From NCBI GenBank assembly GCA_043228905.1, contig JBHGNT010000022.1, forward strand, positions 9,486,001-9,550,000: DNA of 64,000 nt, in the 5' to 3' direction. Of this stretch, positions 1,474 to 60,545 are shown one piece after another. The notes under the pieces were generated by a model. It was not told where the DNA came from, did no database searches, and saw only the letters and a list, made by a program, of their open reading frames with translations. Every line of letters starts with the position of its first letter. The stretch's first letter is position 1. The stretch is from Azolla caroliniana. Lineage: Eukaryota; Plantae; Polypodiophyta. Position numbers and translations under genes: made by a program.

Positions 1474-1913
1474 TGAAATACATAGTTGGTGAGGATTGAA
1501 CCTGCAACCTCACATCAACAAGATGTCATGCTCAACCATTTTGATATGAGCATATATTTATATATAATAATTTAGTATTATATAGTCTACATTTCATAAT
1601 CATAATATACTAGTCATTAGTATATTCTAGAAATACTATACGGTATATTCTAGAGATATTTCTCGAGTATATTCTATATATATTCAATCTCGGAACTTGT
1701 ATAAATACTTGTAATCTCCTTGGTCCCTTTCAAGGGATTCATCGCCAATCATTGACACATCAATCTAGTATTCTTGTTTCAGGCCATATTGTCTCCTTCT
1801 TCATCTCTGTCTTCATGGTCTCATGTTCTTCATTTCATATCAATCGTAGCCTCGTCACCCATAGTCTCATCATCCGTGTTTCTTCTTAGTCCGCGGTTGG
1901 TGTGTTCGTGACA
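1474..1913 (+). repeat. 5' LTR of element J
   Basis: Aligns with 3097-3531; TATAAATA at 1700; ends GTGACA. Confidence 0.8.
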
Positions 1914-3096: not shown

Positions 3097-3531
3097 TGTC
3101 ACACATAGTTGGTGAGGATTGAACGTGCAACCTCACATCAACAACATGTCATGCTCAACCATTTAGATATGAGCATGTATTTGTATATAATAGTTTAGTA
3201 TTATATAGTCTAGCATATAGTACATTTCAGAATCAAAATATTCTAGTTGTTAGTATATTCGAGAAATATTGTACGATATATTCTAGATGGGTATATTCTA
3301 GAGATATCCAATCTCAAAACTTATATAAATACTTGTAACCTCCTTGGTCCCTTTCAAGGGATTCAACAACAGTCATTAACACATCAATCTAATATTCTTG
3401 TTCTATTACATCTTGTCTCGTTCTTCATCTTTGTCTTCATGCTTGTGTGTCGTTCCCAACTTCTTAAGTTCCACACTCTTAGCCCCATCATTTGTGCTCC
3501 GTTCGAGTCCATGATTGGTGTGTCCGTGACA
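3097..3531 (+). repeat. 3' LTR of element J
   Basis: TGTCACAC...GTCCGTGACA, preceded by PPT. Confidence 0.8.
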
Positions 3532-25028: not shown

Positions 25029-25060
25029 CGTTGCACTTGATATCCTCTCTACCGCCTCGT

Positions 25061-25078
25061 TTCACGTCGGGTTCACCA
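25061..25078 (-). promoter_or_regulatory. PBS complementary to tRNA-Trp (Gypsy D)
   Basis: TGGTGAACCCGACGTGAA matches the plant tRNA-Trp 3' end ..TTCACGTCGGGTTCACCA as recalled. Confidence 0.85.
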
Positions 25079-25082
25079 AAGA

Positions 25083-26332: not shown

Positions 26333-26982
26333 CCGCTCTTTAGGGAATGGGCAACTGCGTTGCTTTCTGAACTGACATGCTTCGCATATGCCTGTACTCT
26401 CCTTCGCTGTAAAGTTCGAGAGTTCGATTATGACTCATTTCGATTGCATGTTCTGGAGATTTTGGAGATTGATGTGGCCGATTCTCTTGTGCCACAGTTT
26501 CAAGTTGGTTTCGAATTTCTGGCCCTTTGCAAACATGGCCGACTTTACCTCGCTCGATTCGAGGATGAACATACGACCTTCACGACGGTCGTGAGCTATG
26601 ACTTGATCGCCTTTTTCGATGAAGCACCCATCGTTATTGAAGCGTACTTGCATTCCTTGTTTGACAATCTGGCCAACCAAGACTAGGTTTTTTGTAATAG
26701 TAGGGACATGCAGCACGTTCTTGAGGTAGGTCTGTTTGCCGTCGTTTTTGAATGGGGCGTTCCCGATATGTTGTATTGGGTGAGTCGTGTCATCTCCTAT
26801 TTTGACATATCCGAGACGTTCGGGCTTCTGTAGTTCCCGAAACCAATTTTCATGGGACGTCATGTGATTGGATGCTCTCGAATCGACAAACCATACGTTG
26901 TTCGGAGTGGATGCGACAGTTGGCGCAAGTGCAAACATTGAGTGCGCTTCGTGCTTCACTATAACCCTTCGTGCCATAGTCG
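26333..26982 (-). pseudogene. Copia C protease / pre-integrase segment
   Basis: WFVDSRASNHMT, LKNVLHVP, LWHKRIGH. Confidence 0.9.
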
Positions 26983-27500
26983 TGTTACCGGCCGACAAAG
27001 AAGGCTAAAGGAGGTCCAAACCAGAGTGTGAAAGGAATAGTTATTCGGGAACTGTTGGAATTAGTAGTCTTAATATATACATATTATTATATAAGAAGAT
27101 GTGGACGGACGGACCGGAATCGGTATGCCGATCCGAATCTGGAACGATACCGTAAAGGTGCCGGTTGGCACCGTTTTGTATTTCGCACCGGAGACCTATA
27201 TAAAGGCCCGGTTACAATGTAATCAGGAGCGGATAATTAATAAAGCTTATGGTCTTAATCTTCAAGTGTTGATTACCGTTCTGTAATTATTGTCATATCT
27301 TACGCGTGTTAATTATGGATGGCTAAGTAATCGATTAAGGTCTAATTAAGCGTTGTGTCGTAAGTCATTCTGCCGTACCACCCTTTGGTGATGTGTCTTG
27401 AGTGGACACCCTGTGTTAGGCTGTTGTCCGACCCTAGTAATAACACAGTTTTTGGCGACCACGATTCCTGCATTATCATAGTGAACAACAGCAGGAATGG

Positions 27501-29667
27501 ATGACTAGGCCAACAGACGACCCGGTTACGGAGAGAGCACGAAGACTTGCGGAACGGAGATGGCGGCGAGAGGCTTTTCAGCAAGCAGCGGAAGAAATCC
27601 AAACGGATCGATCATTTTCCAAAGTGATCCGGAAAGTGGCGGAGGAGTCGCTCCGTCTGCAACAAAACGCTTACCCGGACGAAGGAAGTAGCTTAAGCAG
27701 CCTCCGGGAAGCGGAAACCCTTCTCCAGGCCTTGGCCGGAAGAGAAGGCGAATCTAAAGCATTCTCAACACTGGAATCGGATTCGGAAGGGGGTTACAGT
27801 GCGCATACGAACTATCACAGCAGTAACGACACCCCAGGAGGACCGGAGGACGAGGAGTCGGATACTTTACTGACACCGGAACCAGAGTTGGCAGACCAAG
27901 AACCTCCGGCACTCGTCGTGGAGCAACCTCCGAAGACGGAAGTACACCGGCAAAAACCTCCAACACCGGAAGTCGAGCCGGCAACACCAAAGGAAAACCA
28001 GCAGAGACCTCAGACGCTGGTGGAACAGCAGGAAAGACAACCGACACCGCCAGCCCGCGTACCGACATCGGACGACGATATGCCGTTCCAATACTCCAAG
28101 TATCGGGATGACCTGGACGCGAAGGCTCATGTTCACGCATTTGAACAAACATGGGAAGCAAACCATGTGTCACAACGGTTAACCGCGGTAGAAGAGGAAC
28201 GATCTAAGATAGCCGAATTCGGCGTGACATTAGAAGGACCGGCCGCCAGATGGCACCAAACGCAGGATCGCAGGACCATCACCACCTTTGCGGACCTGAA
28301 AGACAAATTCTTGCACTTCTTCTAGAAGGAGGTGGATCAGCGAGAAATGGTGGGCTTATTTTACACAATTAGGGAGGACCCCGGCGAGAGCATCCCACAG
28401 TTTGTCATCCGGTTTCAACGGATGCACAGTCAGCTTACCCGCGCACCTCCGGAGGAAGAAACGCGGGCTATATTTTTAGCCGCGCTCCGGGAACCTCTAC
28501 GAACGGTATGCATGGTCATTGACTTTCGCACAAGCACCGTCGACCAAGTCATCGACCGGGTTCGAGAAATGGAGAAAACGAGCTCTTGGCTAACAATGGG
28601 AGCCCTCCAACGAGCATTACCAACCGATGAGGATCTCCGTTTCCGGCAAGCAATCCAATGCACGACTTGCTTGAATTTCGGACACTCGTCATTGGAGTGC
28701 ACCATGCGGACGCACTGCTTACTCTGCCAATCTACGAGCCACACGATGGACCGGTGCGAATATAACTTATTGAATCGACAAGCTCCACCAGTCCGGCAAA
28801 TCGAGCCATGTAGCAGCCGAGACGAAGAAGATGAACGCTGGCGACGAGAGGAGCGATATTGAACGACACAAGATGTCTGGTACGACAATCGGCGAGACAA
28901 CTACGACCGGTACAAGAAATACGACAAGTACCGAGAATACAATGGACGGTACGAGCATCACAACCAGGATCACTCCCCCGGGTATCACCAACGACGGGAA
29001 GATTACGGGAGGTATGACGACCAACCCCGGCAAGGGTACCGCAACAAAAAGAACTTTAATAAAAAATGGCATTTCAAAAACGGGAGCCACCCATGTGAAT
29101 CGGAAAAAGGCGCCTCAAGCAGCCAACCAGACCAGAGCCCCGCGGTTACCACAAGTCCTCCACCGGGTACAGGAAACAATGCCGAATCCAGCAACACCCA
29201 GAAAGCATATTGCTATTACTGCCGGCAAGAAGGACATTATAGTAATCAATGTCCGGCAAAAAGCTATGATAAGTGACCGGCAGTAAACATGGTAGTCGCC
29301 GAAGTCGCAGACCTCCAGCAGGTCACCACAAGGTCGAAGGGGAAGACTACAGAATGGGAGACACAAGAGGCCATCTGGAAACAAGCAACGGAATGGGTAA
29401 AAAAGGCCAATGAGCGAAACATAGCAGAACTCGCACAACAGAAGGAGAACACCGAAGAGGTCGCCGGAAGCAGTCAGTCCGAAAACGCGACATGGCAGGT
29501 ATTGCAGGAATGCCAGATCACGCTGCCGTTAGGAAGACTCTTGCAGCTAGTACCAAGATTCACAGAAGGACTCAAGGAAGGCATGACGACAGGCGGAACA
29601 CCACCGGCTCCGGCATTCTTCTCAAATCCGGAGGAGGGACCGGCTGTGGTGGACACCAACAGTCCGG
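27501..29667 (+). pseudogene. Gypsy E gag (stops/frameshifts)
   Basis: TLEGPAARW..LKDKFL, ESIPQFVIRF; CCHC knuckles CTTCLNFGHSSLEC, CLLCQSTSHTMDRC, CYYCRQEGHYSNQC. Confidence 0.85.
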
Positions 29668-31250
29668 TGTTGCGAAGTTTCGCGCGTGCGTGTGCTACTC
29701 GAGCGACCACCGGGGCCTTGGACTAGGGAGGACGTTCGCGGAATTATCGAAGAGATGACGATCAATGTAAGATTGGATGAAATTTGTTCGCTTGAGAAGA
29801 AGAAAGACTGTACACTTGAGAAGTAGAAAAATATGAAGAAGATAAAGACGAATATAATTATATTGATGATAGTGGTGTTGGTGATATCACATATTGAGCC
29901 CCCCTTACACAAGCTCAAGTAGAGGCTTTTATAGGTCTTTCCATGCTTGTGACATGCACAAAACCATGGGCTAAAACCATGGTTTTGTGCACACGGTTTT
30001 GCTTATGTCATGCACAAACCATGGGTTTAGAACCATGGTTTTGTGCACATGGTTTTCTATGGTTGTTTCGTTTATAATTTGTATATGAAAAGGAAATACA
30101 TAAAATCTACACTATATGATAGTTGTCCTAGTTGTAAGGCAAATATCTTGTATCTTAGAGGTGTAAGGTTCAAACCTTGCCTGCACCCCTCTGTATGAAC
30201 TCAAGTGCCACTAGGCCTTAGGAGGCTTATTTGCTAAGTGTATGTGCAATGTTGCACATCCTTGGTTTATTCGTCTCACTCGGTTTCACACTGTAGCCGA
30301 AAATCATCACGACATCCACCCCCACCAAACCCGCACATCCTCCGGTATGTGTCGAGAAAGGTGAAGAGGTGAGATCTTTGGCAACTGTGATCAACCGAGT
30401 TCCTCCGCACGCTCGTCTAACTTCGTCTTCCACTTCGAGTATGCCCAATCTTTCCAACCGAACCACCGTAGCCACCCGATCCACCATATCCGGTGCTCAC
30501 ACCTTCTTCCCCGGTCGGTTGTAGTAGATCTACCGAACGATGTCATCGATCCGACCGCTCTTCCTTCGTCTACTACGCGTGTCCTTCGATTGGACTCCTG
30601 GCCAATCCTTGCGCTCACCGTCTTCAACTGGGTATTGTGGATCGTTCGTGTCGATCCCTGATTAGGCTGGGTTTGCCCTTGTCCGGATCGGTCTCCACCG
30701 ATCGCTTCTTGGCTTGGTTGGCCTTCGTCTGCATTCGCATTTCGCCGAGTCGGGCTCAACCGATTGATTCCTGCCGGGTCGGCCCCCTTTTGGATTGGGA
30801 TTGTCCGATCGATTTCGGCCGAATCAGGTTTCGGCCAGGTCGGCCCCGGTCGATCGGCTCCCATGTGGATCTTCCTTCGTTCGGGCTGGAATCCTGGCCG
30901 GATTGTCTTCCGGTTTGACCGCTTCTCGACTCTTCCTTCCTTCTCGCATGCCGCCTCTCCATTGAACTCAACCGCGGCTTCATCCTTGGCCTCCTCGTCG
31001 GCCACATCCTTCCCTCTGTGTATGCTCGCCTCGAGCCATATTGTCTCCTCTCTGCCACCTCCTTTATCTTCAGTCTTATGTCGACACACGGTCTCGATTG
31101 CCAAAGTCTTCGGAACCAATGTGAAGGAATCCCTTCGTTCATGCACATTTACCTTGTCTTCCTCATCTCCCTTCCGGTCGTCCGCTTTTCTGTCCACACA
31201 TTCCGTCTCTCCGGTCTCACGTTGGCGCACGTGCACAACCGCCGAAATCT

Positions 31251-32590: not shown

Positions 32591-33184
32591 TGTCGTGAAG
32601 TACGAAAGCTTCACATTAAAAGTCTACAATAAGATAAATACGTAAGGGTCGAAGCACGCTACGGTGTACCAGAAAAGTACTGTTTTTGGCCACAAAAATT
32701 GTCAGTACTTTCAATACTGTTAGTACTGAATAATTCAGAAAAAAAATTAGAGAAAAAGAAAATCGATTTTGGAGAGTGGGGTGACTGTAGTACAAGTGTC
32801 ATTTACTGTAGAAGGAGTGGGGGGAACACGTGAGGAGATGTTCTTCCATTTTGGGGGCTATTTTCCCCTCACGTCGATTTTGGCGCTTCCCCTCACGTCG
32901 TTTTGGCGATTCCCCTCATACTGCTCTTCCTCTATCCCTCTGAGCTTTTCATCACAGACATCCATGTCATGTTTCTGATTTTCCTTCAATCTAAATCTCA
33001 GACATCCATGTTTGGTTGGAGAGTTTGAGTTGAGGATTTCTAATTTTTTTAGGGTTTCTGTTTTTGTTAGGTTTCGGTTGAGGTACAAAGACTGTTCTGA
33101 GGGTTTAGGTAGCAGCCAATAGTCACTTCTTCGACAACGACTTTCTTACTTCCACCGATTGCAGTTGATGTCGTGGTGATTTGG

Positions 33185-33795
33185 GGCTTTTTCCACCAAA
33201 TCGAGGCGGCATTGGAGGTTCCTTCCACCAAATCGAGGCTCCTTCCACCAAATCAAGGCGACATATCCAACGCTCCCTCCACCATTGGAGGTTCCTTCCA
33301 CCAAATCGAGGCTGCATATCCACGCTCCCTCCACCATTGGAGGTTCCTTCCACCAAATCGAGGCGGCATATCCAACGCTCCCTCCACCATTGGAGGTTCC
33401 TTCCATCCATTTTTTTATTTTCAGTACTAAAATGTTTCATTTCTTCATATTTCAGTACTAAATTTTTAGAATTGACATTTGCCATATTTGATATGTAATT
33501 CTAATGTTTGAAACAAAATATTTCTCACTTTGTAGGCCACATTTAAAAACATTTGATTGTGTTTTCTTGGTTGAGTCTATATATCCACGCTCCCTCCACC
33601 ATTGGAGGTTCCTTCCATCCATTTTTTTATTTTCAGTACTAAAATGTTTCATTTCTTCATATTTCAATACTAAATTTTTAGAATTGACATTTGTCATATT
33701 TGATATGTAATTCTAATGTTTGAAACAAAATATTTCTCACTTTGCAGGCCACATTTAAAAACATTTGATTGTGTTTTCTTGGTTGAGTCTATATA
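33185..33795. repeat. Subterminal repeats of the Sola element: ~53-bp units followed by a ~212-bp tandem duplication
   Basis: TTCCACCAAATCGAGGC..CCACCATTGGAGGTTCC repeated; ~33370-33580 duplicated at ~33582-33795. Confidence 0.8.
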
Positions 33796-33849
33796 ACATT
33801 AACTACTTTCGCAAGACACTTAATTTTTGTAGATAAATCTAGTGACCGA

Positions 33850-34455
33850 ATGGGGGTTCCTAACGACAGTGAGTTGTCAAGTAACTCATGCATATCTGAA
33901 AGGACTAAGAGACGAGTGGTTCTTCACATAGTCCGTTATTTGGTAGAAATAACGAAGAGATTTAGTGAAGAGGATCGTAGGGATATTATCTGTAGAGTGT
34001 TACACCATCAAAGTTTGAATGAAGACATGGAGAGAATAAAATTTAGGGACCAATGTGTTTCAGAAGAGATTGTGGAGTCTATGAAGTCATCCCTAGACTT
34101 AGTGAAAGGTGTAGAGAGCTTAGACAAACTTGCTGCAAAGAGGGCAGCCCTACGCATGGTTGTGAACGGTGCGAGAGAAAAAAAATATAGTGATACTAAA
34201 GTTGCCTTAGCCCTGGGTATTCAAAGAAGGAACTTGAGGAAACATCGCCGAAATATACACTCAAGCAAATTCAAGTGGCTGGGGTCGGGACGTAGACGAC
34301 GATGTGATGCCTTATCTCAAGAGATTATTGAGAAAGTGGATTCATTTTGGGCCAAAAATATGCGTGTCTCACCAAATAAGAAGGACGTGTGTAGACAACG
34401 AATAAGTCAGGGTAAGTACCAGATTCACCCTAGACACTTCTTGGAGATGACAGAG
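33850..34455 (+). CDS. Sola2-like transposase exon 1
   Basis: ORF ends GAG|GTATT at a codon boundary; joins exon 2 in frame (HFLEMTE|AELYMNF). Confidence 0.7.
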
Positions 34456-34547
34456 GTATTCCATTTTTTTATATCAATTCACATTCCATAACTTTGTGTT
34501 TTGACCAAGTGTATATTAATGTTTGCTATATATATTGGTTGATGTAG

Positions 34548-35497
34548 GCTGAATTGTACATGAACTTTAAAGACCAACATCCAAGCTTGACTGTCGGATT
34601 CCGCAAGTTCCAAGGTTTGAAACCATTTTATGTTAGAAAATTAAATGAGAGGAATACATGTTGTTGTGTGTACCATGTGAAGATGGACATGTTAAGGCTA
34701 GCAGTGAATGCAATGCGTACTGATTCTAAGGGTATACATGGGGAATTATGTGTCTGCACTTGTGAGATTTGTAGACCAAATGGGGAGGATAATAGGTGTA
34801 ATGCACGAAACATGACTTATGCATCCGTTTCTGAGCTATGGAGGTCTTGTGTTTGTGAAAAAGAACCATCATGTGAGTGGCATCGTCGTACATGTATATT
34901 AAGAACATGTAAGGTTTGTCCGCTACCATTATTTTGTAGGCAGGAGCTTGATATGGGAAATAGTCATATCGTGAAATGGAAATATTTGGAGTATGTGACT
35001 GAAAATATTGGCAAGGGAGTTGTAACTAAGCGTATCAAGGAAGTATATAAGGAGACATGTGCTGCTACCCTTGTCTCAGAATTTAAGAAACAACTTGGGG
35101 AGTTTATTCCACATAACTTCCGGAGTTATTGGCAAAATTCACAGTTCAAGGAATGTATTAATAACTTACCAACGGGTGTCATTGTATCCGTTATTGATTT
35201 TGTAGAAAACTATACATTTAAAGTTCAAAATGAGGTTCAATCAATGCATTGGTACAATGATCAATGTACAATACTTGTACATATTTGCTATTGGAGGCAA
35301 GACGGTGAGTTACATAAGAAATCAATATTTTACATTTCAGATGATAAAAAGCATGATACACTATTTGTTCAACATTGTTTTAAGCTTCACCATGCAGATT
35401 TATTTTCTCTAGGGTTAACCTTTAACCGTCATTGGGTTTGGTCTGATGGTGCTGCCTCGCAGTTTAAGGCGGCACGATCGTTCTACTTTATCGCCAT
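34548..35497 (+). CDS. Sola2-like transposase exon 2
   Basis: TCCCVYH and Cys-rich region; IDFVENY..QSMHW; SDDKKHD; WSDGAASQFK; donor GTAATT at 35498. Confidence 0.8.
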
Positions 35498-35715
35498 GTA
35501 ATTTTTAATCCATATGTTTAGTACTTATCATGCAATGTGTAAGGAAGTAATTCTTGTGTTAGTGGATGCATACTAATTATGTTTGTAACTATTAACAAAC
35601 AGTACTAGTCACATGGATGCATACTAATTATGTTTGTAACTATTCGAATCTTGCACTTGTGAATGGATGCATGCATACTAATTTTGTTTGTATTATGTTG
35701 TACTAAGTAACTTTT

Positions 35716-36997
35716 AATCCATGTGAAGTGTTCTCCATAGACACATTGTACTATGTTGTGTTTACAGAAGGATGTAAAGTACTCATCTTGTACTTAGAGT
35801 ATTGTCCGTCCTTAAGAGAATTGTACTAATGATCTTTTTATCCATGTGAAGTGTTCTCCATAGACACATTGTACTATGTTGTGTGTTGTATCTGTACTAT
35901 GTTGTGTGTATAGAAGGATGTAAAGTACTCATCTTGTACTTAGAGTATTGTCCGTCCTTAAGAGAATTGTACTAATTATGTTTTAATCCATGTGAAGGGT
36001 TCTCCATATACACATTGTACTATGTTGTGTGTTGTATCTGTACTATGTTGTGTTTACAAAAGGATGTAAAGTACTCATCTTGTACTCATAGTATTGTCCG
36101 TCCTTAAGAGAATTGTACTAAGTATCGATTAATCCATGTGAAGGGTTCTCCATAGACACATTGTACTATGTTGTGTGTTGGTTTTGTACTATGTTGTGTT
36201 TACAAAAGGATGTAAAGTACTCATCTTGTACTTATAGTATTGTCCGTCCTTAAGAGAATTGTACTAATTATGTTTTAATCCATGTGAAGGGTTCTCCATA
36301 GACACATTCTACTGTGTTGTGTGTTGTATCTGTACTATGTTGTGTTACAGGAGGATGTAAAGTACTCATCTTGTACTCATAGTATTGTCCGTCCTTAAGA
36401 GAATTGTACTAAGTATCGATTAATCCATGTGAAGGGTTCTCCATAGACACATTGTACTATGTTGTGTGTTGGTTCTGTACTATGTTGTGTTTACAAAAGG
36501 ATGTAAAGTACTCATCTTGTACTTATAGTATTGTCCGTCCTTAAGAGAATTGTACTAATTATGTTTTAATCCATGTGAAGGGTTCTCCATAGACACATTA
36601 TACTATGTTGTGTGTTGTATCTGTACTATGTTGTGTTTACAGGAGGATGTAAAGTACTCATCTTATACTCATAGTATTGTCCGTCCTTAAGAGAATTGTA
36701 CTAAGTATCGATTAATCCATGTGAAGGGTTCTCCATAGACACATTGTACTATGTTGTGTGTTGGTTCTGTACTATGTTGTGTTTACAAAAGGATGTAAAG
36801 TACTCATCTTGTACTTATAGTATTGTCCGTCCTTAAGAGAATTGTACTAATTATGTTTTAATCCATGTGAAGGGTTCTCCATAGACACATTATACTATGT
36901 TGTGTGTTGTATCTGTACTATGTTGTGTTTACAGGAGGATGTAAAGTACTCATCTTGTACTCATAGTATTGTCCGTCCTTAAGAGAATTGTACTAAA
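35716..36997. repeat. 146-bp tandem satellite (9 units) in transposase intron 2
   Basis: TCCATGTGAAG at 35718, 35841, 35987, 36133, 36279, 36424, 36570, 36716, 36862; decayed units continue to ~37510. Confidence 0.95.
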
Positions 36998-37539
36998 TCA
37001 GTATTTACTCATGTTGTACTCATAATATTGTACTCATCTTGTACTCATCTTTTAAACACACTGTGTGGTACTGATTATCTATTAATCAATGTTCAACGTT
37101 CTCCATGAACACACTGTATTGTACTATGTGTTGTATCTATACTAAATCAGTGTTTATTGGGGGATGTAAAGTACATGTCTTGTAGTACTAATGATCTTCT
37201 AAGGAGGGTTGTGTTCTCCGTGGACACATTGTATTGTACTATCCGATATTGAACATTTTGTACTATTTATCTGTTAATACATGTAGAGTGCTTTCCATGA
37301 ACTCATTGTACTATACTTTGTGTGCTATATCCATACTAAGTTAGTATTAAATGGATGCCAGGTACTATTGGTCGACAACATAGTACTATTTATCTTTTAA
37401 TAAGTGTAGAGTGTTCTCAATGGATACGTTGTGTTATGCTTTGTTTTGTATTTGTACTAAATCAGTATTAATGGAAGTGTAGTACTCTCAATTGACAACA
37501 TAGTACTAATTTTGTTGGAAACTTGAGATACCAAAGCAG

Positions 37540-38120
37540 GTATTTCTCCTTATTCAATATTCGTATGCAATGGAATTACTTCGGGTCTGGACATGGAAAA
37601 GGAGAGCATGATGGCGCGGGGGCTGTGATCAAACGTGCCCTTACAAGTGAGCAGTTGGATAATAATGGCGCTAAGTTACAAAATGCACATGATGTTGTGT
37701 AGTGGCTAACATGGAAGATGTCAAATGATGGTAAGAACAGATTGTTTGTTGAAGTTCGCGCTGATGAGGTCGATAGAACTAAATCATATGGTTGTAAAAC
37801 CGTGAAAGGCACACGCAACACCCATTGTGTGTTAGGGTTTAGCCGCAAGGACACAACCCAATTGTTACTCCGTAGTTTATCATGCTTTTGTTCCATGTGT
37901 CTAGATGAAGCTTGGGATAAATGCATCAACCTATCAATCGTGGAGCCCTGGAAGCTGCAAAAGCTTGAGCCTGAACGACAAGATGATATTGAAGAGGATG
38001 TGCATTCAAAAGATATTGTATACTACAACCAAAATCAAGACTTGGCAGTTTTATTGGAAGTTGGAGATCATTTTGCAGTGCTCAAATATTCTCAGAATGA
38101 AGATTTAGAAGACTACTACA
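37540..38120 (+). pseudogene. Sola2-like transposase exon 3 (one in-frame stop at ~37700)
   Basis: Acceptor CAG|G at 37539; WNYFGSGHGKGEHDGAGAVIKR; VKGTRNTH; LSCFCSMC; 3' end uncertain. Confidence 0.78.
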
Positions 38121-38956
38121 TTGCATGTACAAACCATGTCAAACACACAATAACCCTAAATAGTCGGAAAAAAACTCATCCATGTCAAACACACAGACAA
38201 TAAAAACAGACGGATAGGAAAGTCAAAGAAAACGAAAACATTGTAAATCATCATAGCCAACTCCATCACATCGCATGTACAAGCCATGTCAAACACACAA
38301 AAACCCAAAATAGTCGGAAAAACACTCATCCATGTCAAACTCACACAAAATAAAACAGATGGACAGGAAACAAGAACAAAACGAAAACATAGCAACTCAT
38401 CATAGCCAACTCCATTTACGTTGCATGTACAAACATGTCTAACACACAACCACCTCGATCAAAATATTGTCATACATTTTTAAAAGAAACACAGAGAAAC
38501 ACAGAGAAAACAAAAACATACCAGTTGGGCATGCAACACATAGACTATGAATAATCAAACCCTAAAAATGGCCATACACATGCAAATAAAAAACAGACAC
38601 ACAGGAAACATTCAGAAAAAGAAAACATACCAGTTGGGCATGCAACACAGAGAATACCTGGAGGTCGTACAACTTGCAGAGGTACCACACCGTGTTGATT
38701 TCGACTAACGAGGCTGCTGCAGAGGAGACAAACGAGCATAGACAGAGGAAACAAACGAGCATACACAAGGAAGGAAAATCAACAACACATACAACGAGCA
38801 GGGGAAACAAAAATATCTGCGTATAAAGAGTTCAGAGATCGAACCTGGCACAGAGGGGAACACAAGAACAACTATGCGGGGAAACAGAGAATCGAAGGTG
38901 GAGTGAGAGAGAGAAACAGAAAGAAAGAAAGAAACAGAGCTTTGAAGGTGGAGTGA

Positions 38957-39111
38957 GAAAGAAAGAAAGAAAGAAAGATATATTAACGTCTTCTAAGGCC
39001 AAAATTGGCCCATGAGACAAATGGTTTACAACAAAAATGGGATATTTACCCATTCATCGAAGTAAAAATAAAAATAAGATGAAAAATAGAGTTTAAGCTA
39101 AATAGTTCTAA
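38957..39111 (-). mobile_element. Short 3'-UTR copy of the RTEX-like LINE
   Basis: Near-identical to ~12985-13122 (GAAAGATATATTAACGTCTTCTAAGG..CCCATGAGACAA..), in a GA/GAAA-rich tract. Confidence 0.75.
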
Positions 39112-39194
39112 CAGAGAAAGAGAGAGATAGACCTGTAACAGATATGTCGTCTTTCTTTAACTTTCTGCCACTGTCTGTCTGACAACTTCGAGAC

Positions 39195-39236
<42 letters not shown>

Positions 39237-40635
39237 GTGAGAGAGAGAGAGACATACCAATTGACACGTTCGACTACCCATACCAGAGAGAGAGAGAGAG
39301 AGATATACTGAGACTGACCAACTGTCACAATGGATACCTTCTCCAGGTGTGCTTTCGTACAACTCTACCTAGGAGACTGGGGCAACAATTAATGTATTAA
39401 ATATGGCCTAGGGACATTTTGAGTGTGACATACAATATCTTTGTGCATTCGAGTGTGACGTAATGAATTTGTTTTTTGTTTTTTAAAACTTATTTACAAT
39501 TTTTAATGTTTATTTTCTTCTTCGATTTAGTACTAAATTTTTGGCCAAAAGTTGGTACACCGTAGCATGCTTCGACCTGTAACTAAAATAACATTTGATC
39601 ATGTTTTATATATAAAGATAATATTAACAACACATGATAATATTATATATATGTAAAGAAAAATAATATATATATATAGATAAATATATTATATTACACG
39701 AACAAGAGAGGACTTGAACCAATAACCCCACCCTATGACTCTCAAATCTTACCATTTATTCTATACTAGTAATATATATAAAATAAAGCATACTTTATAT
39801 ATACTTTATATTACATAAAGGATTTGCTTCATGATATAAAAATAAAGTTGTATATTGTATTCAATAGTATTTTGAGACTCAAACCCACAACCTCATACAC
39901 CAAAGTCAACACACCTACCATTAGGCTAGGCCCTTTCTCTTTAAGATTATATTTTGATGTTTATTGTTATTCCAGATATTGGTTCATACATAAAAGCTCA
40001 AATGAACGAGATGTTTATCATGCATCACATGTAATGCATGAACGCCAAATGGCGATCATGCATCACATGCATGACTTGTACCCTCCAATGCATCATATGC
40101 ATGGGGGCACCTATTTAAATGGTGAAAGAGAAGATCAAAGGGGGATATGTATAAGATATCAATCAAATTATGTATTACATAAGAGATACCATAAAAATAG
40201 AGAAAGAAGGGACGAAGTTTAATATAAACGTGGAGCTCTAGCTTGGCGGTCGTGGTGGTCGACTCTCAACAAGAGGGAGGCGGTTCGAGCCTTATCTTCA
40301 TCAAAATATTGAAGTGAAGATTGTAGTGGTCTACGATCAAGAAAGAGAAGAGCGATTACCTTGCAAGACAAAGTTCGGAGGTTCAACGATGACAATCATT
40401 TTGTAACTCTTTCATGAAAATGATTATAAATTTCATACACTTTCTCATCTTATATCTTATCTTGTCTTATCTTATATTCCTTAAAAATCCTATTTTGTCA
40501 TATCTTATTGATCTCTATTCACTCTATCTCTACTCTTTCGTCTCTTCTGTCCATAATCCCTGTGATTCCTTCCTCACTTTCACGTTATCCTTTGTGTGCG
40601 CAACGCTCCGCTTCTAGGCAAGCCACGTCACGACA

Positions 40636-41615: not shown

Positions 41616-42311
41616 TGTTGCACTTGATATCCTTCCTATCGCCTCTTTCACGTTGGGTTCACCACTTGATGTCGCGAAGTTTCGCGCGTGCGTGTGCTAC
41701 TCGAGCGACCACCGGGGCCTTGGACTGGGGAGGACTTTCGCGGAATTATCGAAGAGATGACGATCAATGTAAGATTGGATGAAATTTGTTCGCTTGAGAA
41801 GAAGAAAGATTGTACACTTGAGAAGTAGAAAAATATGAAGAAGATAAAGACGAATATAATTATATTGATGATAGTGGTGTTGGTGATATCACATATTGAG
41901 CCCCCCTTACACAAGCTCAAGTAGAGGCTTTTGTAGGTCTTTCCATGCTTGTGACATGCACAAAACCATGGGCTAAAACCATGGTTTTGTGCACACGGTT
42001 TTGCTTATGTCATGCACAAACCATGGGTTTAGAATCATGGTTTTGTGCACATGGTTTTCTATGGTTGTTTCGTCTATAATTTGTATATGAAAAGGAAATA
42101 CATAAAATCTACACTATATGATAGTTGTCCTAGTGGTAAGGCAAATATCTTGTATCTTAGAGGTGTAAGGTTCAAACCTTGCTTGCACCCCTCTGTATGG
42201 ACTCAAGTGCCACTAGGCTTTAGGAGGCTTATTTGCTAAGTGTATGTGCAATGTTGCACATCCTTCGTTTATTCGTCTCACTCGGTTTCACACCATAGCC
42301 GAAAATCGTCA

Positions 42312-44806: not shown

Positions 44807-45626
44807 TGTTGAAAACCAGTGCTCGGCCACAACCGAGGAACTGGATCGATCAACTCACAGAAAACGGGAAATACAATATGCACGAAGACAACTGAGAGAA
44901 AGGTACACAGGATGTTTTACGTGGAAAACCCTAAATGGGAAAAACCACGGGAGTCCTCAAACTCCAACTATCAGTATAAACAGAGGTGTACAATGGTGAA
45001 GCTACAAGGCAACAACCTTGAGCTCACTGTCTTCGCCACAGGCGGCGGTAATACACAGAGGCAACGACCTCTTCGTCTCTCTCTCTTTCTCTCTCTCGGC
45101 TGCTCTCTTCGCTCTCTCTAAGTGAGAAACAGAAAAATGAGCAACAACACATAAACTGTTTGCCCTAAGTCATATTTATACACATATGACTTTCGGGCTA
45201 TTTACAAAATATAGCCTCAATGGCTCTTAGCAAACATATTCACAAATATGTCCCTGCATCCGGATCTCTCTCCGGGTACATTCATCATCCGGCTCCGTAG
45301 CCGGGGTCTTCAGCATCCAGCTCCGTAGCCGGGGTCTTCATCATCCGGATCCGTATCCGGGTACTCTTCATCCGGCTTCATGCCGGGTGGTCTTCATCAT
45401 CCGGTTCCGTAACCGCAACCGGGCTTGCCGTCATTTATCTCCGGGGACATCCCATCCGGAGGGACCGAAATCCCAACAAACTCCCCCTTCACTTGTCAGG
45501 AACTCTATTAAGGCAGAGAAGGAATTAGTACTAAAAGAAGGATTAGTACTATTGTTGGGGAATAGTACTAAGACAGAGAAGGATTAGTACTATGAGAGGT
45601 GTCGAACTTTGAGAGAAGGAATGAGT

Positions 45627-45662
<36 letters not shown>

Positions 45663-45951
45663 TGATGCGAAAGATATATGTATTATATGACGGAAGATAT
45701 ACAACAGTAGTTAGAAGGCTTAAGACTGGCGTTGAACCGATTTGGTTCGAACTAATGCCTTGCGCCTCCTTTTATAGTGTCTTCAGGAATACTCCTGAAG
45801 TTTCTAGAATGTTCCAGAGAAATCTGGAATATACATCAATTTCCTAATAAAACCTAAATGAAAATAATATCCTTCAAATTACAACTCATAACCTAATGGT
45901 AAAGTCTCGACCCGTGTAACAAAAGGTTATGGGTTCGAGTCTCGAGTCTAG

Positions 45952-48900
45952 TTATGACACTATCCCCCCTTTAAAACGACGAGTTTCACGAGTCGTTTTG
46001 GATTGAGGACCCGGTTTCTCGGGATATCGTCGATGGAAGTCTTCTAGAAGAGCACGAGCATTGGTCACATTCTCGATCGGTTCCCAAGTACGCTCGCTGG
46101 GACTATATCCTAGCCAATCGACTAGATAGTAGAGCTTGTTGCGAACAATCTTGGAATCGAGGATGGCAGCGACCTCATACTCAGGTCCATCTTCGAGCTC
46201 GATAGGAGGTGGAGGTTGTATAGTACGTCCTGGGATGGTGCTCTCGTGATAGGGTTCGAGGAGAGAACTATGAAACACCGGGTGTATCCGAAGTTGCGGA
46301 GGTAGCTCGAGACGAAAAGCGACATCATTAATCTTCCCGATAATACGGAAAGGACCTAATCGTCGATAATCCAACTTCTCACATGGGCGAGTAGTCTTGA
46401 TGTGTCGTCGTAGCAGCCACACCCGATCTCCAATGTTAAAACTGGATGGAAGTCGATGACGATCTGCGTAGTCCTTGTGTGATTGTTGAGCTTGCTGGAG
46501 TTGAGTAGATAAATCCGCTTGTATCTTGCGTAACCGCTCCAAACGATCCTCCGCGCAAGGATTTGTGGACACTTCTGGGGTTTCAAGGACACACCACCGG
46601 GGATGATATCCCGTATAAGCGTAGAATGGCGTGACTTTAGTCGATGCGTGGATAGCGTTATTATAGGCAAATTCGGCGAACTGAAGAATATCTGCCCAGT
46701 CATTCTGATGATAGTTGAGAAAGCACCGCAGATACTGCTCCAGTGTTTGATTTGTTCGTTCGGCTTGACCGTCGGTTTGTGGGTGGTAGCCGGAGGAGAG
46801 GTTACAAGTGACCTTCAGCATTTTAAAAAGGTGCTTCCAGAATTTTGACACAAACTGGGGTCCACGATCGCTGATGATATTATCAGGGAGTCCATGATGC
46901 CGACATACTTCCCGCATGACAATTTCGGCGGTGTCTTCACTAGATATTTCTTTAGTACATGGTAAGAAATGAGCCATCTTCGTATATCGATCCACCACTG
47001 TGAGAATCGCACTGAATCCCTTAGAGACTGGAAGATCTGTAATGAAGTCAAGAGCAATGGATTGCCATGGCTTGCTTGGAATTGGTAATGGTTCTAATAA
47101 ACCATATGGATGATGTCTTGGCATTTTCGCTCTGCAGCATGTATCGCAAGTCCGAACAAAATCTTCGACAAATTGTCGCATACGGGGCCACCAGAATGAT
47201 CGTTGTACTAAATCTAATGTTTTAGTACTACCAAAATGTCCTGCTGTATATGTGTCATGGCAGTTTTGTACTACTCGAAGGCGGCAAGAACCATTAGGAA
47301 CATACAAAAGTTCTTTAAAGAAGAGTAATCCATCACAGTATTTGAATTGCCGATAATCCGTACCTGGTGATTGTGATTGTGAACATGACGCTCGAGAGGG
47401 GTCAATTTGTGCTAGTATAGCTTGGGCGAAAGCGTCAGTCTTCAAGTCCTCACGTATAGTATTGGTAATGTCGGAATCCACGGGCATGTCAAAGATCTGT
47501 GCTGCTTGCAGTCGTGCTGGACCCAAGATTACTTGCTTCTGGTTATCGAAAGCTGGCTCACCGGGACGTGGTGTTAGATACGAACGCCGTGATAATGCAT
47601 CTGCCTTCCCTTGGTGCTTCCCCGGACGATATGTAATTTTGAAGTCGAAGCGTGTGAGGAAGTGGGCCCACCGAGCTTGACGTCGATTCAGTACACGAGC
47701 ATCTTGAAAGTAGGCAAGGTTCTTGTGGTCACTGAATACAGTGACCTGATGAGGAGATCCCTCCAGGAAATGCCTCCATTGCATAAAAGAATCAACTATT
47801 GCTAATAGCTCTTTATCATGAATTTCGTAGTTGATTTCGGCGGCGTCAAACTTACGGGAGTGGAAAGCCACAGGATGTAGCTTCTCGTCGTTACCCTGTT
47901 GTGACAGAATGCTCCCCAATGCGAAATCCGATGCATCAGCTTCGATAATGAATGGTTTTTCCGGATCCACATGACCTAAAATTGGAGCTGATGTAAACGC
48001 CTTCTTAAGACTCTCGAAAGCCATGTCCGTCTCTTTAGACCAAATGAATGATTGTCCCTTCCTGGTGAGCTGTGTGAGAGGCAGCACAATTTTTGAGTAA
48101 TTTTGTATGAACTTCCGGTAGAAATTTGCAAAGCCTAGGAAGCATTGCACATCCCGCACCGAACGCGGAGTGTGCCATTCTATCACCGTTTTGACCTTGG
48201 CTGGGTCCATAGATATGCCTTCTGAGGAGATGACATAGCCGAGAAACTCCACTTGGTTGCACCCGAAACTACATTTCTCTAATTTTGCATACAGACCATG
48301 TTCTCGAAGTCGTTTTAGTACTAATAGTACATGAGAATCATGTTCTTCTTGGGTCTTTGAATAAACCAGTAGATCATCCAAATAGATGATCAAAAAATCA
48401 TCCAAGAGATCTCGAAATATATCATTCGCCATGTGCTGGAAGACTGCCGGCGCATTAGTGAGTCCGAACGGCATGACCGTATACTCGAAGTGCCCATATC
48501 TGGTGCGAAACGCGGTCTTCCATTCATCTCCTGGTCGGATCCGTACGAGGTTATAGGCTCCTCGTAAGTCGATCTTCGTGAAGAACCTGGCACCGTTGAT
48601 CCGTTCTAAAAGACTTGAGATAAGGGGAAGAGCATACCTATTTCTTACTGTGACCTTATTCAAGCCACGGTAATCTACAACGAGTCGAAGCGAGCCATCT
48701 TTTTTCTTGACGAAGAAAATGGGTGCGCCGGCTGGAGATTTCGAATGCCGAATGAAACCGTTCTCCAAATTCTCCTCTATATAGGCTCGAAGGACTTCTA
48801 GCTCGGTTGGTGACAAATTGTAGATCGGCCCCCATGGCGGCTCTTTTCCCGGTTGTAAGTCGATGGCGCAGTCGTACGGCCGATGATGAGGAAGTGTGTT

Positions 48901-49548
48901 GGCTTGTACTTTATCGAACACATCAGCATACTGACGATACTTCTCGGGAAGTTGAACGGTGGACTCCTCTTTGGTGGTGCTGGAGGGTTGTACTGATATT
49001 GCAAAGAGAAACATTTCCTCCTTGCGCCCTTCCTCACGCAACTGACGTAGCGAAATGGTTGCAACCTTCTGGGTAGATCCTTGGGTTTGTCGCAACCGGA
49101 TTTCCCTTGTCCTCCAATCTATGTCTGGGTCATGTAACTCGAACCATGGTAATCCTAAAACTATGGGATGTTCTGGAATACTAATAATATTAAATGATAC
49201 TACACATGTTAAGTTATCTAGGACAATATTAACGGGTTCCGACTCTTCTATGATATTACCAGAAGCAATGGGACGACCATCAATGACTACTACTGAGGCT
49301 GGACATGGGAGCTTTCTGAGAGATATCTGATGAGCTCGGGCAAAATTCCTATCCATGAAGCAAGAATTAGCTCCGGAATCTAGAAGGGCTAAGGTATGTA
49401 CTGGAGGGGTACTTTTAGTACTAACTGCTACTTGGACTACGAACACATCACTAACTTGCTTAGAGGGAATGGAACCACTAATGGGCTGCACAGATCTAGG
49501 GCTGTCCAACCAAACGGCTCCTATTTTGGCTGGACTTAGTCGTTTAAC
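45952..49548 (-). CDS. Gypsy I pol: PR-RT-RH-IN-chromodomain (probably via -1 frameshift from gag)
   Basis: LLDSGA, YLDD, DASD, HHCC, DFITDLP..SDRG..E, GPF, YEVAAILDS..YLVDWLGY..TWEP; uninterrupted. Confidence 0.95.
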   Translation of the reverse strand, partial: VKRLSPAKIGAVWLDSPRSVQPISGSIPSKQVSDVFVVQVAVSTKSTPPVHTLALLDSGANSCFMDRNFARAHQISLRKLPCPASVVVIDGRPIASGNIIEESEPVNIVLDNLTCVVSFNIISIPEHPIVLGLPWFELHDPDIDWRTREIRLRQTQGSTQKVATISLRQLREEGRKEEMFLFAISVQPSSTTKEESTVQLPEKYRQYADVFDKVQANTLPHHRPYDCAIDLQPGKEPPWGPIYNLSPTELEVLRAYIEENLENGFIRHSKSPAGAPIFFVKKKDGSLRLVVDYRGLNKVTVRNRYALPLISSLLERINGARFFTKIDLRGAYNLVRIRPGDEWKTAFRTRYGHFEYTVMPFGLTNAPAVFQHMANDIFRDLLDDFLIIYLDDLLVYSKTQEEHDSHVLLVLKRLREHGLYAKLEKCSFGCNQVEFLGYVISSEGISMDPAKVKTVIEWHTPRSVRDVQCFLGFANFYRKFIQNYSKIVLPLTQLTRKGQSFIWSKETDMAFESLKKAFTSAPILGHVDPEKPFIIEADASDFALGSILSQQGNDEKLHPVAFHSRKFDAAEINYEIHDKELLAIVDSFMQWRHFLEGSPHQVTVFSDHKNLAYFQDARVLNRRQARWAHFLTRFDFKITYRPGKHQGKADALSRRSYLTPRPGEPAFDNQKQVILGPARLQAAQIFDMPVDSDITNTIREDLKTDAFAQAILAQIDPSRASCSQSQSPGTDYRQFKYCDGLLFFKELLYVPNGSCRLRVVQNCHDTYTAGHFGSTKTLDLVQRSFWWPRMRQFVEDFVRTCDTCCRAKMPRHHPYGLLEPLPIPSKPWQSIALDFITDLPVSKGFSAILTVVDRYTKMAHFLPCTKEISSEDTAEIVMREVCRHHGLPDNIISDRGPQFVSKFWKHLFKMLKVTCNLSSGYHPQTDGQAERTNQTLEQYLRCFLNYHQNDWADILQFAEFAYNNAIHASTKVTPFYAYTGYHPRWCVLETPEVSTNPCAEDRLERLRKIQADLSTQLQQAQQSHKDYADRHRLPSSFNIGDRVWLLRRHIKTTRPCEKLDYRRLGPFRIIGKINDVAFRLELPPQLRIHPVFHSSLLEPYHESTIPGRTIQPPPPIELEDGPEYEVAAILDSKIVRNKLYYLVDWLGYSPSERTWEPIENVTNARALLEDFHRRYPEKPGPQSKTTRETRRFKGGIVS
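49495..49548 (-). promoter_or_regulatory. Predicted -1 ribosomal frameshift signal
   Basis: G_UUA_AAC in gag frame, 6-nt spacer, 11-bp stem GUCCAGCCAAA/UUUGGUUGGAC, loop UAGG can pair with downstream CCUA. Confidence 0.75.
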
Positions 49549-50705
49549 TCTTCTTCTAATTGGCTAAGGACATCAAATTTGTTTGCGAGATTCGGACTAT
49601 TAGTACTATTAAGACTATTATGACTATGAGGATTATCAGAGATTCCTACTGACATAGACTCGGGTTTAGTATAGTCAGAACTAACAATGACTTGGTTTAC
49701 CTGCCTTCTTGGTCTATGGGGACAGTTTATCGCGATATGCCCTGGTCCACCGCAATAAAGGCATAATCGGTTTGTTCGGCGTCGTTGCTTTTCCTCCTCC
49801 GATAGCGGCCCACGACGACGTGTAGTGTCAATTTCCATTGGAGTTGGAGTACTTACTGGAGGCGCATTATGTGACTCCCTTTGAAAAGGTTTCGCTACCA
49901 CTGAGGCATAGGTAGGCTCGGATCTTGCCCTCGGCATCTGAAATTGTCGTTCCGAACGTCGCTCGAAGAGGCGGTTGTCACATCTGACCGCTCGACTGAT
50001 TGCTTCTGTTAATGATTTTGGCTCTTCAGGGAAAGTCAAGAGTAAATCCTTGACATCGTTGCGTAGACCATAGCGGAACTGCTCCATCAATGCTTGATCA
50101 TCCCAGGGGATATCGGCGGCGAGTAGGCGGAAATCTGCAGCATATGCGGAGGCTGGACGGTCACCTTGGCGTAATCGCCGGATTTTGTTGATTGCAGTCC
50201 TTATGCTGTCAGTATCTCCAAAACATGCTTTAAACTCACTTATGAATTCTTCAAAATTATTTAGTACTGGAGATTCCTTTTCTAGTAGCGGAGCGAACCA
50301 TGCTAATGCTGAGCCATTTAACAACGTGCCTACTAAACCCACTCGTGATGCATCGGTGGGATATCGGGACGGATGCATTTGAATAACTAACCGTACCTGG
50401 TTAAGAAACCCTCTAAACTGCGATCGCGTTCCATCGAACTTCGTGGGAAGGCCAATCTTGGGTTCTTTATGAATCCCTTGTGCTCCGTGCCCTTGTTGTT
50501 GCATTGCTACGATGGTTGCTTCGAGTTGTTGCACGCGTAACGCAAGTTCCCCATGCTGTTGTTGCGTTTGCTGCTTTTCTAAGGAAATTTGCTGAAGATC
50601 CCCCAACAAGCGTTGATTTTCTTGTTCCAAAGCATGAAACTTCTCTTTCAAGCATTGAAATTCCGAGAAAACGGATTGATACTCTTCAGCGCTAACGGTG
50701 GCCAT
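49536..50705 (-). CDS. Gypsy I gag (389 aa)
   Basis: PTKFDGTRSQFRGF, LRQG, PTPMEID, CLYCGGPGHIAINC. Confidence 0.95.
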   Translation of the reverse strand: MATVSAEEYQSVFSEFQCLKEKFHALEQENQRLLGDLQQISLEKQQTQQQHGELALRVQQLEATIVAMQQQGHGAQGIHKEPKIGLPTKFDGTRSQFRGFLNQVRLVIQMHPSRYPTDASRVGLVGTLLNGSALAWFAPLLEKESPVLNNFEEFISEFKACFGDTDSIRTAINKIRRLRQGDRPASAYAADFRLLAADIPWDDQALMEQFRYGLRNDVKDLLLTFPEEPKSLTEAISRAVRCDNRLFERRSERQFQMPRARSEPTYASVVAKPFQRESHNAPPVSTPTPMEIDTTRRRGPLSEEEKQRRRTNRLCLYCGGPGHIAINCPHRPRRQVNQVIVSSDYTKPESMSVGISDNPHSHNSLNSTNSPNLANKFDVLSQLEEELND

Positions 50706-50778
50706 GGGATGAAGGAAAAGGGAAATAAGAGACTAGTAGGAAAGGAGAGAGACAGAAGGAAGAGGGAGACTAGTAGGG

Positions 50779-50791
50779 CAAATCGGTTCAA
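50779..50791 (-). promoter_or_regulatory. Self-priming PBS of Gypsy I
   Basis: Sense TTGAACCGATTTG is the reverse complement of the LTR sequence at 51034-51046, ~32 nt downstream of TATAAAAG. Confidence 0.8.
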
Positions 50792-50926
50792 ACTGTCAGG
50801 AACTCTATTAAGGCAGAGAAGGAATTAGTACTAAAAGAAGGATTAGTACTATTGTTGGGGAATAGTACTAAGACAGAGAAGGATTAGTACTATGAGAGGT
50901 GTCGAACTTTGAGAGAAGGAATGAGT

Positions 50927-50964
<38 letters not shown>

Positions 50965-51261
50965 TGATGCGAAAGATATATGTATTATATGACGGAAGAT
51001 ATACAACAGTAGTTAGAAGGCTTAAGACTGGCGTTGAACCGATTTGGTTCGAACTAATGCCTTGCGCCTCCTTTTATAGTGTCTTCAGGAATACTCCTGA
51101 AGTTTCTAGAATGTTCCAGAGAAATCTGGAATATACATCAATTTCCTAATAAAACCTAAATGAAAATAATATCCTTCAAATTACAACTCATAACCTAATG
51201 GTAAAGTCTCGACCCGTGTAACAAAAGGTTATGGGTTCGAGTCTCGAGTCTAGTTATGACA

Positions 51262-60027: not shown

Positions 60028-60545
60028 AAGGGGCCGGATAGTGGGTTCGACGTACAAGGTACTGTCCCACGGGCGTGCCATGTGTTACCGGCCGGCAAAA
60101 AAGGCAAAAGGAGGTCCAAACCAGAGTGTGAAAGGAATAGTTATTCGGGAATTGTTGGAATTAGTAGTCTTAATATATACATATTATTATATAAGAAGAT
60201 GTGGACGGACGGACCGGAATCGGTATGCCGATCCGGATCCGGAACAATACCGTAAAGGTGCCGGTTGGCACCGTTTTGTATTTCGCACCGGAGACCTATA
60301 TAAAGGCCCGGTTACAATGTAATCAGGAGCGGATAATTAATAAAGCTTATGGTCTTAATCTTCAAGTGTTGATTACCGTTCTGTAATTATTGTCATATCT
60401 TACGCGTGTTAATTATGGATGGCTAAGTAATCGATTAAGGTCTAATTAATCGTTGTGTCGTAAGTCATTCTGTCGTACCATCCTTTGGTGACGTGTCTTG
60501 AGTGGACACCCTGTGTTAGGCTGTTGTCCGTCCCTAGCAATAACA

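Follow-up and report, generated by a model that had tools for sequence, protein, structure and literature searches.

The closest described systems are small plant retrotransposons whose long terminal repeats (LTRs) carry Pol III promoter sequences. In the Helenus TRIMs (TRIMp3), one family of which is from Selaginella, boxes A and B are conserved in both LTRs and do not make a working tRNA (PMC10886601). In that report any autonomous partner is argued to depend on Pol II, with no requirement for a common LTR. It also remarks on tRNA-like parts in "not a few" LTRs of Repbase, TRIMs alone being analysed there; in this sense the cassette sequence described below may already have been glimpsed. 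The words "moss" and "antisense" are absent from the accessible text of the same paper. In yeasts, not in plants, B-box sites bound by TFIIIC have been described as heterochromatin barriers that tend to lie between divergent promoters (PMC3395662). Among Gypsy elements, Tcn1 has a self-priming, LTR-complementary primer-binding site (PBS), and an NCGN target site is the signature of Phygy, which uses a tRNA primer and has no chromodomain (PMC6317226).

The accessible parts of PMC6317226 and PMC2864245 describe PBS, PPT, TATA and CAAT boxes and, as far as found, no tRNA-like LTR unit; "polymerase III" does not appear in the accessible part of PMC2864245. A report of the cassette was likewise not found in the available portions of PMC13570524, PMC3286476 and PMC12786077. 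In our literature search the Tcn1/Phygy LTR cassette was not found described, and subscription papers, Repbase entries or supplements may mention it. A previous sequence-only reading of the window (the whole 64-kb stretch of DNA analysed here) had named Cassandra as a parallel and missed the Helenus TRIMs, the Pol III units in foamy-virus U3 and the tRNA-pairing site in Ty3 U3. Here we compare the A/B-box cassettes of this window, and of Tcn1-type relatives, with those systems.

Materials and methods

The weight matrix for the cassette was trained on 19 Tcn1-type families, with element I included and F, H and J excluded. A search with the integrase end of I returned 978 proteins. Ten C-terminal segments were aligned, which led to 79 metagenome loci, taken from the 80 best among 512 candidates, together with 2 loci of the viral collection; U3 could be read from them because the 3' LTR directly follows the chromodomain. 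The 82 sequences formed 41 families at 85% identity; the 28 with at least 90 nt of LTR were scored and the other 13 left out. The loci chosen as representatives, 18 in all, trace to 13 assemblies within a single accession series, possibly one sampling campaign. Conservation was assessed on one representative for each of 19 families, the best member with no more than four mismatches; their median integrase-end identity is 57%. Low-depth single contigs jumping across the cassette of I were left out, the sequence in between being unread. One run presumed to be RNA supplied 6 contigs for I, all without strand.

Results

Box pairs in the window

The whole window is a nest of LTR retrotransposons. 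Their types, Tcn1-like and Phygy-like, suggest a host among the non-seed land plants, likely a moss. A pattern search recovered every A/B-box pair that the sequence-only reading had named, each with the claimed A-to-B start distance of 43 or 44 nt (Table 1). Perfect GGTTCRANYC boxes occur seven times in the 64 kb, and all seven have an A-like box 43-44 nt upstream. The claimed excess over shuffled DNA also held: there are 8 pairs with at most two total mismatches, whereas 300 local dimer shuffles gave 0.067 such pairs on average and never more than 1. As these 8 comprise three LTR pairs plus two in H, they represent 5 independent sequences. The matrix gave exactly nine matches of at least 12 bits in the window, all in the LTRs of I, J, F and H, and none at that threshold in its Copia or other LTRs. 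The best score among 40 shuffled windows was 21 bits, so that H1 (19.9 bits) and H3 (17.3 bits) are each weak alone and count only in company.

These pairs show the box arrangement of a type 2 Pol III internal promoter, an A box followed by a B box at tRNA-like spacing, and the tRNA-derived sequence with both boxes is present in both LTRs. The lack of a full cloverleaf, noted earlier from the letters, agrees with ARAGORN, which found no tRNA gene in the window or in any of the 39 loci (of 81) that were scanned; an Rfam search of the window returned 8 weak matches and no tRNA family at E<=10. Location in U3 and antisense orientation had been proposed for the cassettes of I, F and J and are borne out there, the cassettes being directed outward; H1 and H2 conform to this arrangement, whereas H3 is likely sense and past the likely TATA box of H. 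Four Gypsy families had been counted, and one of them, H, is a solo LTR whose Gypsy label is drawn only from its ends and a 4-bp CCGC target duplication.

Table 1. Positions of the cassettes and neighbouring features in the window.
Feature	Position	Strand	Basis and remarks
J cassette, 5' LTR (about 1463-1913)	1493..1546	-	Box pair and matrix; antisense
J cassette, 3' LTR (3099-3531)	3116..3169	-	B box with one mismatch; A/B 3169/3125
F cassette, 3' LTR (29667-30314)	30124..30176	+	Box pair and matrix
H solo LTR	32591-40635	orientation inferred	Split by 7-kb insertion; flanked by CCGC
H1 cassette	39711..39763	-	Perfect B box, poor A box; tandem with H2
H2 cassette	39876..39928	-	40 bits, strong; likely U3, antisense
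H3 cassette	40239..40291	+	Good boxes, without AGGT; likely sense, past TATA-like box (40112-40119)
F cassette, 5' LTR (41670-42311)	42126..42178	+	Antisense, about 135 nt from outer end
F mirrored A-like box	42169..42220	-	A-like box at 42220, 42 nt from the same B box, opposite strand
Element I, Ty3/gypsy chromovirus, intact	45494..51261	-	LTRs, ORFs, domains
TATA box of I	45769..45777	-	About 110 nt from A box, divergent from cassette
Heat-shock-element-like array GAAnnTTCnnGAAnnTTC	45797..45814	.	Motif; between cassette and TATA box of I
AT-rich tract upstream of A box of I, predicted TFIIIB landing region	45844..45880	+	Base composition
I cassette, 3' LTR	45889..45941	+	A box 45889-45899, AGGT 45924-45927, B box 45932-45941
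Primer-binding site of I	50780..50793	-	Complementary to LTR of I about 30 nt past TATA box
I cassette, 5' LTR	51191..51243	+	Identical to 3' copy, directed out of element

Element I

Judging from its LTRs, ORFs and domains, I is an intact, autonomous Tcn1-type chromovirus. It is 5768 bp long, with LTRs (45494-45959 and 50794-51261) that are 99.6% alike, a TCACT target duplication, and gag (49536-50732) and pol (45952-49563; PR-RT-RH-INT-chromodomain) both open. The chromodomain matches PF00385 (E 2e-14) and has the three aromatic cage residues Y, W and Y, at what we take to be the cage positions. From its primer-binding site, I is predicted to self-prime without a tRNA primer. The cassette of its 3' LTR is antisense to the element and ends 18 nt (B box) from the LTR outer end. 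The array between cassette and TATA box resembles a heat-shock element. A 7-base tandem duplication lies at the B box (45936-45949), and a common 7-base gap in contigs of I's own family merely removes this duplication of the window copy. The locus L001, with an integrase end 95% identical to that of I, has a different, L002-like U3, which suggests U3 swapping between close families.

I is inserted within a Copia element, at the junction of its ORF and PPT, and this target has no boxes. The observation bears on the idea that the cassette is a landing pad or tether, where recruited Pol III factors would guide related integrations or position the locus or its cDNA in the nucleus. Targeting of the Ty1/Ty3 type to Pol III genes is known (PMC12786077), and TFIIIC anchors ETC sites at the nuclear rim (PMC3395662). 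However, besides the box-free target of I, none of the nine window cassettes has an insertion just upstream, and the likely targeting part of Tcn1 integrases is the chromodomain. We give this idea only a very slight chance.

Elements J, F and H

J is a 2-kb non-autonomous relative of I, predicted to self-prime through an LTR-complementary PBS. Its pair at minus 1546/1502 had been listed correctly; its second copy, at minus 3169/3125, was missing from that list.

F has a tRNA-type primer site, presumably for tRNA-Trp, no chromodomain match, and CCGG at its left flank. The related element F2 (20322-26330) is 85-92% identical to F inside and has CCGC at its right flank, and its LTR is unrelated to that of F (1.25 kb vs 0.65 kb) and without cassette; the pair is best described as an LTR replacement between sister elements. 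The mirrored arrangement of F (Table 1) recurs at 30218/30176. The mirrored box is without AGGT, scores poorly and shares a near-palindromic B box with the main cassette. A hairpin RNA from the mirrored boxes is not supported, with folding z of -0.9 and -0.8. Separately, the stretch from TATA box to cassette in the F LTRs (41945-42050 and 29943-30048) consists of palindromic AAACCATGG(TTTT) repeats that form a long hairpin.

The three cassettes reported for H are all present, although H1 has a poor A box (3 mismatches). The insertion that splits H (about 7 kb, 32646-39577) is likely a DNA transposon: its ends are inverted and start GGTCGAAGCA, and it contains a 146-bp tandem array as well as two ORFs with no match in Pfam. 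Contigs of four DNA runs cover all cassettes of F and H, and some bridge the cassette to the LTR flanks. F and H look like Phygy-like non-chromoviruses, with NCGN target sites in H (CCGC), F (CCGG) and F2 (CCGC). The label Tat-like was dropped for both, as no archaeal RNase H match was obtained and the NCGN sites favour Phygy-like.

At 40035-40063, H carries a 27-29 nt CATG/CGCCAAATGGCG module common to the Tcn1 U3s of L011, L013, L014, L017 and L038, which we liken to E2F and RY motifs. Its occurrence in both H and Tcn1 LTRs hints at U3 parts exchanged between lineages, or at convergence. Elsewhere in the window, an element with LTRs near 26980-27445 and 60083-60545 has, at the expected place of the PPT (60040-60081), a sequence like a tRNA 3' end that finishes in CCA.

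Tcn1-type relatives

Of the 28 families, 16 have an antisense A/B pair (at most three mismatches) in the first 200 nt of the LTR when the first-listed member is taken, and 18 when any member is. On the sense strand the count was 0 of 28; the mean over 100 dinucleotide shuffles was 0.01, and adjacent coding DNA yielded 0 of 162. Among the cassette-bearing Tcn1 families the B box is 12-40 nt from the LTR outer end and the orientation is always antisense. Two sister subclades have the cassette, and a third (26 loci, one chromodomain-bearing family with tandem-repeat LTRs) lacks it. It was also not found in L022, L044 or the distant high-GC loci; of the 2 viral-collection loci, both distant, one was too short to score and the other is without cassette. 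The earlier proposal was of a tDNA mimic retained by two Gypsy lineages, of which one includes an intact autonomous element. For Tcn1 this is supported, while the Phygy-like lineage is patchy, with the cassette in F and H and not in F2.

Two further findings concern sequences outside these LTR positions. L058 (3426, minus) and L065 (4872, minus), loci of the cassette-free family, have in common an AT-rich repeat with a tRNA-like A box, AGGT and a GGATCAAAC B-like box, possibly a SINE or other element. Antisense box pairs in pol of L004 (1020, minus) and L005 (2963, minus), of one family, score 17-19 bits, no more than chance would give in 428 kb, and were discarded.

The enhancer next to the cassette switches between families: heat-shock-like arrays are found in 15 of the LTRs read (0.4% in shuffles), and the CGCCAAATGGCG module in L011, L014 and L017. 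The Tcn1 families with such arrays are thus likely heat-inducible; other cassette families are without them.

Conservation within the cassette

Across the 19 representatives, conservation covers both boxes and the TAAG that follows the A box. A44, G46 and T47 are identical in 19 of 19 and G45 in 18 of 19, this AGGT being absent from the search pattern. Positions 24-43 are mostly near random. The spacing from A to B is 42-45 nt throughout and 43-44 nt in 17 of 19, and the 37 nt upstream of the A box are 80% A+T, against 60% further upstream. In five loci (L010, L016, L019, L039 and L043) the B part is significant but the A box has decayed, an asymmetry that is one-sided because the search covered retention of B alone.

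The sequence-only reading had asked whether the boxes are more conserved than their flanks and whether each cassette is a recent SINE insertion. The boxes are far more conserved than the flanks, and the cassette sits in the same place across 16 of 28 families, as a family feature, with no target duplication or 3' tail of its own evident by eye. Such wide presence together with selective base conservation points to a selected, clade-wide element and not to a recent SINE.

An older insertion is a separate matter, for the cassette might be a neutral relic of a SINE or tRNA that is copied along with the LTR. An origin of this kind, by SINE insertion into the LTR, was proposed for Helenus (PMC10886601); the cassette has been lost or has decayed in several lineages, tRNA-like boxes exist outside these LTRs in L058 and L065, and kinship of the families inflates conservation. 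Nevertheless, the 14 box positions stay 81-100% conserved while variable positions are 41% identical at the median, there are hardly any indels between the boxes (the alignment is almost gap-free there) while the flanks vary in length, and in the family of I none of the 40 listed common differences (of 54) falls within 45921-45941, which holds AGGT and the B box. The relic is largely refuted, and we regard it as very improbable.

Conservation of place and strand might also reflect pairing at the RNA level. On the genomic RNA the cassette is complementary to the D and T arms of tRNAs and lies just past the PPT, and host tRNAs might pair there, which could act in packaging, dimerisation or strand transfer. 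The antisense orientation in all cassette-bearing Tcn1 families, within the first 100 nt of U3, and the contiguous conserved run at 44-61 are in line with this, and in Ty3 the primer tRNA does pair with U3 through its T and D arms (PMC5371799). On the other hand, I and J, as predicted self-primers, do not require a tRNA, and the bases kept are generic to all tRNAs, not those of one. Changes that wobble pairing would tolerate (G>A, T>C) make up 4 of 243 cells, and those it would not (C>T, A>G) make up 8 of 135, in a set chosen by score and hence biased. Nor does pairing account for the AT-rich tract ahead of the A box, for the constant length of the unpaired part or for the sense H3, and we hold it to be improbable.

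RNA structure and termination

Pairing in the acceptor, anticodon and T stems and at 15:48 is not above column shuffles (Watson-Crick p 0.16-0.92), the D stem being the only stem that exceeds them. RNAalifold predicts 0 pairs over 24 cassettes. Together with the absence of ARAGORN genes, these results rule out a functional tRNA gene or cloverleaf. Within the D stem, positions 11 and 24 form a Watson-Crick pair in 22 of 27 cassettes (CG 12, TA 10), and 11:24 needs 12 steps when treated as a pair but 20 when its columns are counted separately. It ranks first of 2218 column pairs, yet only at the 95th percentile of the null maximum (61 permutations), and after clustering p is 0.02-0.06; the covariation is suggestive.

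A working Pol III promoter whose antisense RNA matters is the reading to which this pair would belong. From the 3' LTR the RNA would cross the PPT into the end of pol, perhaps for self-limiting silencing, PPT masking or as a source of small RNA, or perhaps it is a minimal mimic of tRNA D arm and T loop. The A box at exact tRNA spacing behind an AT-rich tract fits such a promoter, as do the occurrence of CG, TG and TA at 11:24 within one cassette cluster, the T-stem pairs 51:63-53:61 present in 17-18 of 19 if G-U is allowed, and the long hairpins of the I subclade; foamy viruses do produce Pol III RNAs from U3 (PMC3993851). Single-sequence folds are nonetheless strong only in that subclade (z -2.3, -3.3 and -3.1), with z weaker than -1.5 in 10 of 14 folded cassettes and no consensus fold. 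Moreover, 15:48 is A-C in 12 of 19 and position 26 is mostly T. A shared terminator was not found among the 19 cassettes: T4 lies inside the LTR in 7, T5 in none, and 5 have no T4 in the stretch searched. The A box, in addition, decays in several loci that keep B. Taken together, a functional antisense RNA appears unlikely, though with a real chance.

Discussion

The cassette is present at one place and in one orientation of Tcn1 U3s, with fixed spacing and base-specific conservation, and has lost its tRNA stems. Promoter boxes that are conserved base by base without the stems suggest a protein-bound DNA site. In this sense we propose, with a probability of slightly under one half (about 0.48), that the antisense A/B unit at the outer edge of U3 is a DNA site for TFIIIC, and probably TFIIIB, that shields the element from heterochromatin. 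One old capture of a tRNA or SINE head may have taken place in the ancestor of the Tcn1 clade. TFIIIC, probably also TFIIIB, would then bind the cassette in each new copy, and the bound cassette would act as a barrier or clear nucleosomes, guarding the enhancer and the Pol II promoter; any antisense Pol III transcript would be a by-product. Later transfer of U3 modules may have brought the cassette to the Phygy-like LTRs of F and H.

The sequence-only reading had offered a portable insulator or an antisense Pol III unit as the function. We lean towards a site that acts as DNA over one that acts as RNA, given the lack of a shared fold and of a shared terminator and the B box that outlasts the A box. 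Loci with a decayed A box and a significant B part are expected if TFIIIC binding is the minimum function. The cage-type chromodomain makes it likely that Tcn1 elements land in silent chromatin; consistent with a barrier, I lies inside other retroelements, and the cassette persists while the neighbouring enhancer turns over. TFIIIC tolerates varied spacing between A and B boxes, so a barrier does not require the fixed 43-44 nt, and AGGT lies outside the textbook B box. Furthermore, the covariation at 11:24 is not predicted by a pure DNA site. The cassette-free sister family (26 loci), L022, L044 and F2 indicate that the cassette is dispensable.

A broader and more tentative proposal, which we consider somewhat less probable than not, is that autonomous, heterochromatin-seeking retrotransposons of non-seed plants have domesticated a tRNA-gene promoter as an insulator: a TFIIIC barrier at the LTR outer edge of each copy would keep a stress-inducible promoter alive within silent chromatin, the module would be handed between Gypsy lineages, and the very numerous copies would seed TFIIIC boundaries in the host genome. 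Elements that aim at heterochromatin must somehow remain expressible, and a portable TFIIIC site, if true, is a concrete answer at the level of single bases. If bound, these high-copy LTRs would rank among the major classes of extra-TFIIIC sites in the genome of a plant, and if they insulate they would be the first candidate TFIIIC barriers of plants, with an extended plant B box (AGGT). Should the antisense RNA or tRNA pairing prove right instead, the cassette still reveals that the life cycle of a self-priming retrotransposon includes a conserved and hitherto undescribed step.

Among the known systems, yeast tDNA and ETC barriers resemble the cassette in having B-box DNA, here a predicted TFIIIC site, divergent beside a Pol II promoter; those barriers, however, are fixed in the chromosome and ETC sites have a 3' extension of the B box, whereas the cassette is mobile, keeps its A box and has the 5' AGGT extension (PMC3395662). 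The bipartite primer-binding site of Ty3 is similar in that U3 is complementary to tRNA T and D arms, but it matches one primer tRNA and serves priming, while I and J have an LTR-complementary PBS and the cassette has generic tRNA bases (PMC5371799). Foamy viruses are likewise autonomous retroelements with Pol III units in U3; their miRNA units are stem-loops with U-run terminators and mapped small RNAs, and the cassette has tRNA numbering with neither a shared fold nor a shared terminator (PMC3993851). I itself fits Tcn1 in its predicted self-priming and its aromatic-cage chromodomain (PMC6317226, PMC2864245).

Closer in host and place are the plant TRIMs. Cassandra shares a long-kept Pol III internal promoter in plant LTRs, although that promoter is 5S-derived (type 1), in a non-autonomous element, and transcribes the element (per PMC10886601). 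The likeness to Helenus is a tRNA-derived sequence in both LTRs that is conserved around the boxes (PMC10886601). Helenus, in contrast, is non-autonomous and 311-1263 bp long, against 5768 bp with gag and pol for I and 2 kb for J, and its promoter is proposed to make element RNA, while the cassette is antisense and directed away from the element (sense in 0 of 28 families, H3 being the only sense case); carrier I, autonomous and 5.8 kb long, also has a Pol II TATA box (PMC10886601). Pol III sequences in LTRs are thereby extended from tiny TRIMs to autonomous elements, in the opposite orientation and contrary to the expectation of the Helenus paper. Such sequences were known in small non-autonomous LTR elements; what appears to be new is an antisense cassette that extends across a clade of autonomous Tcn1 elements.
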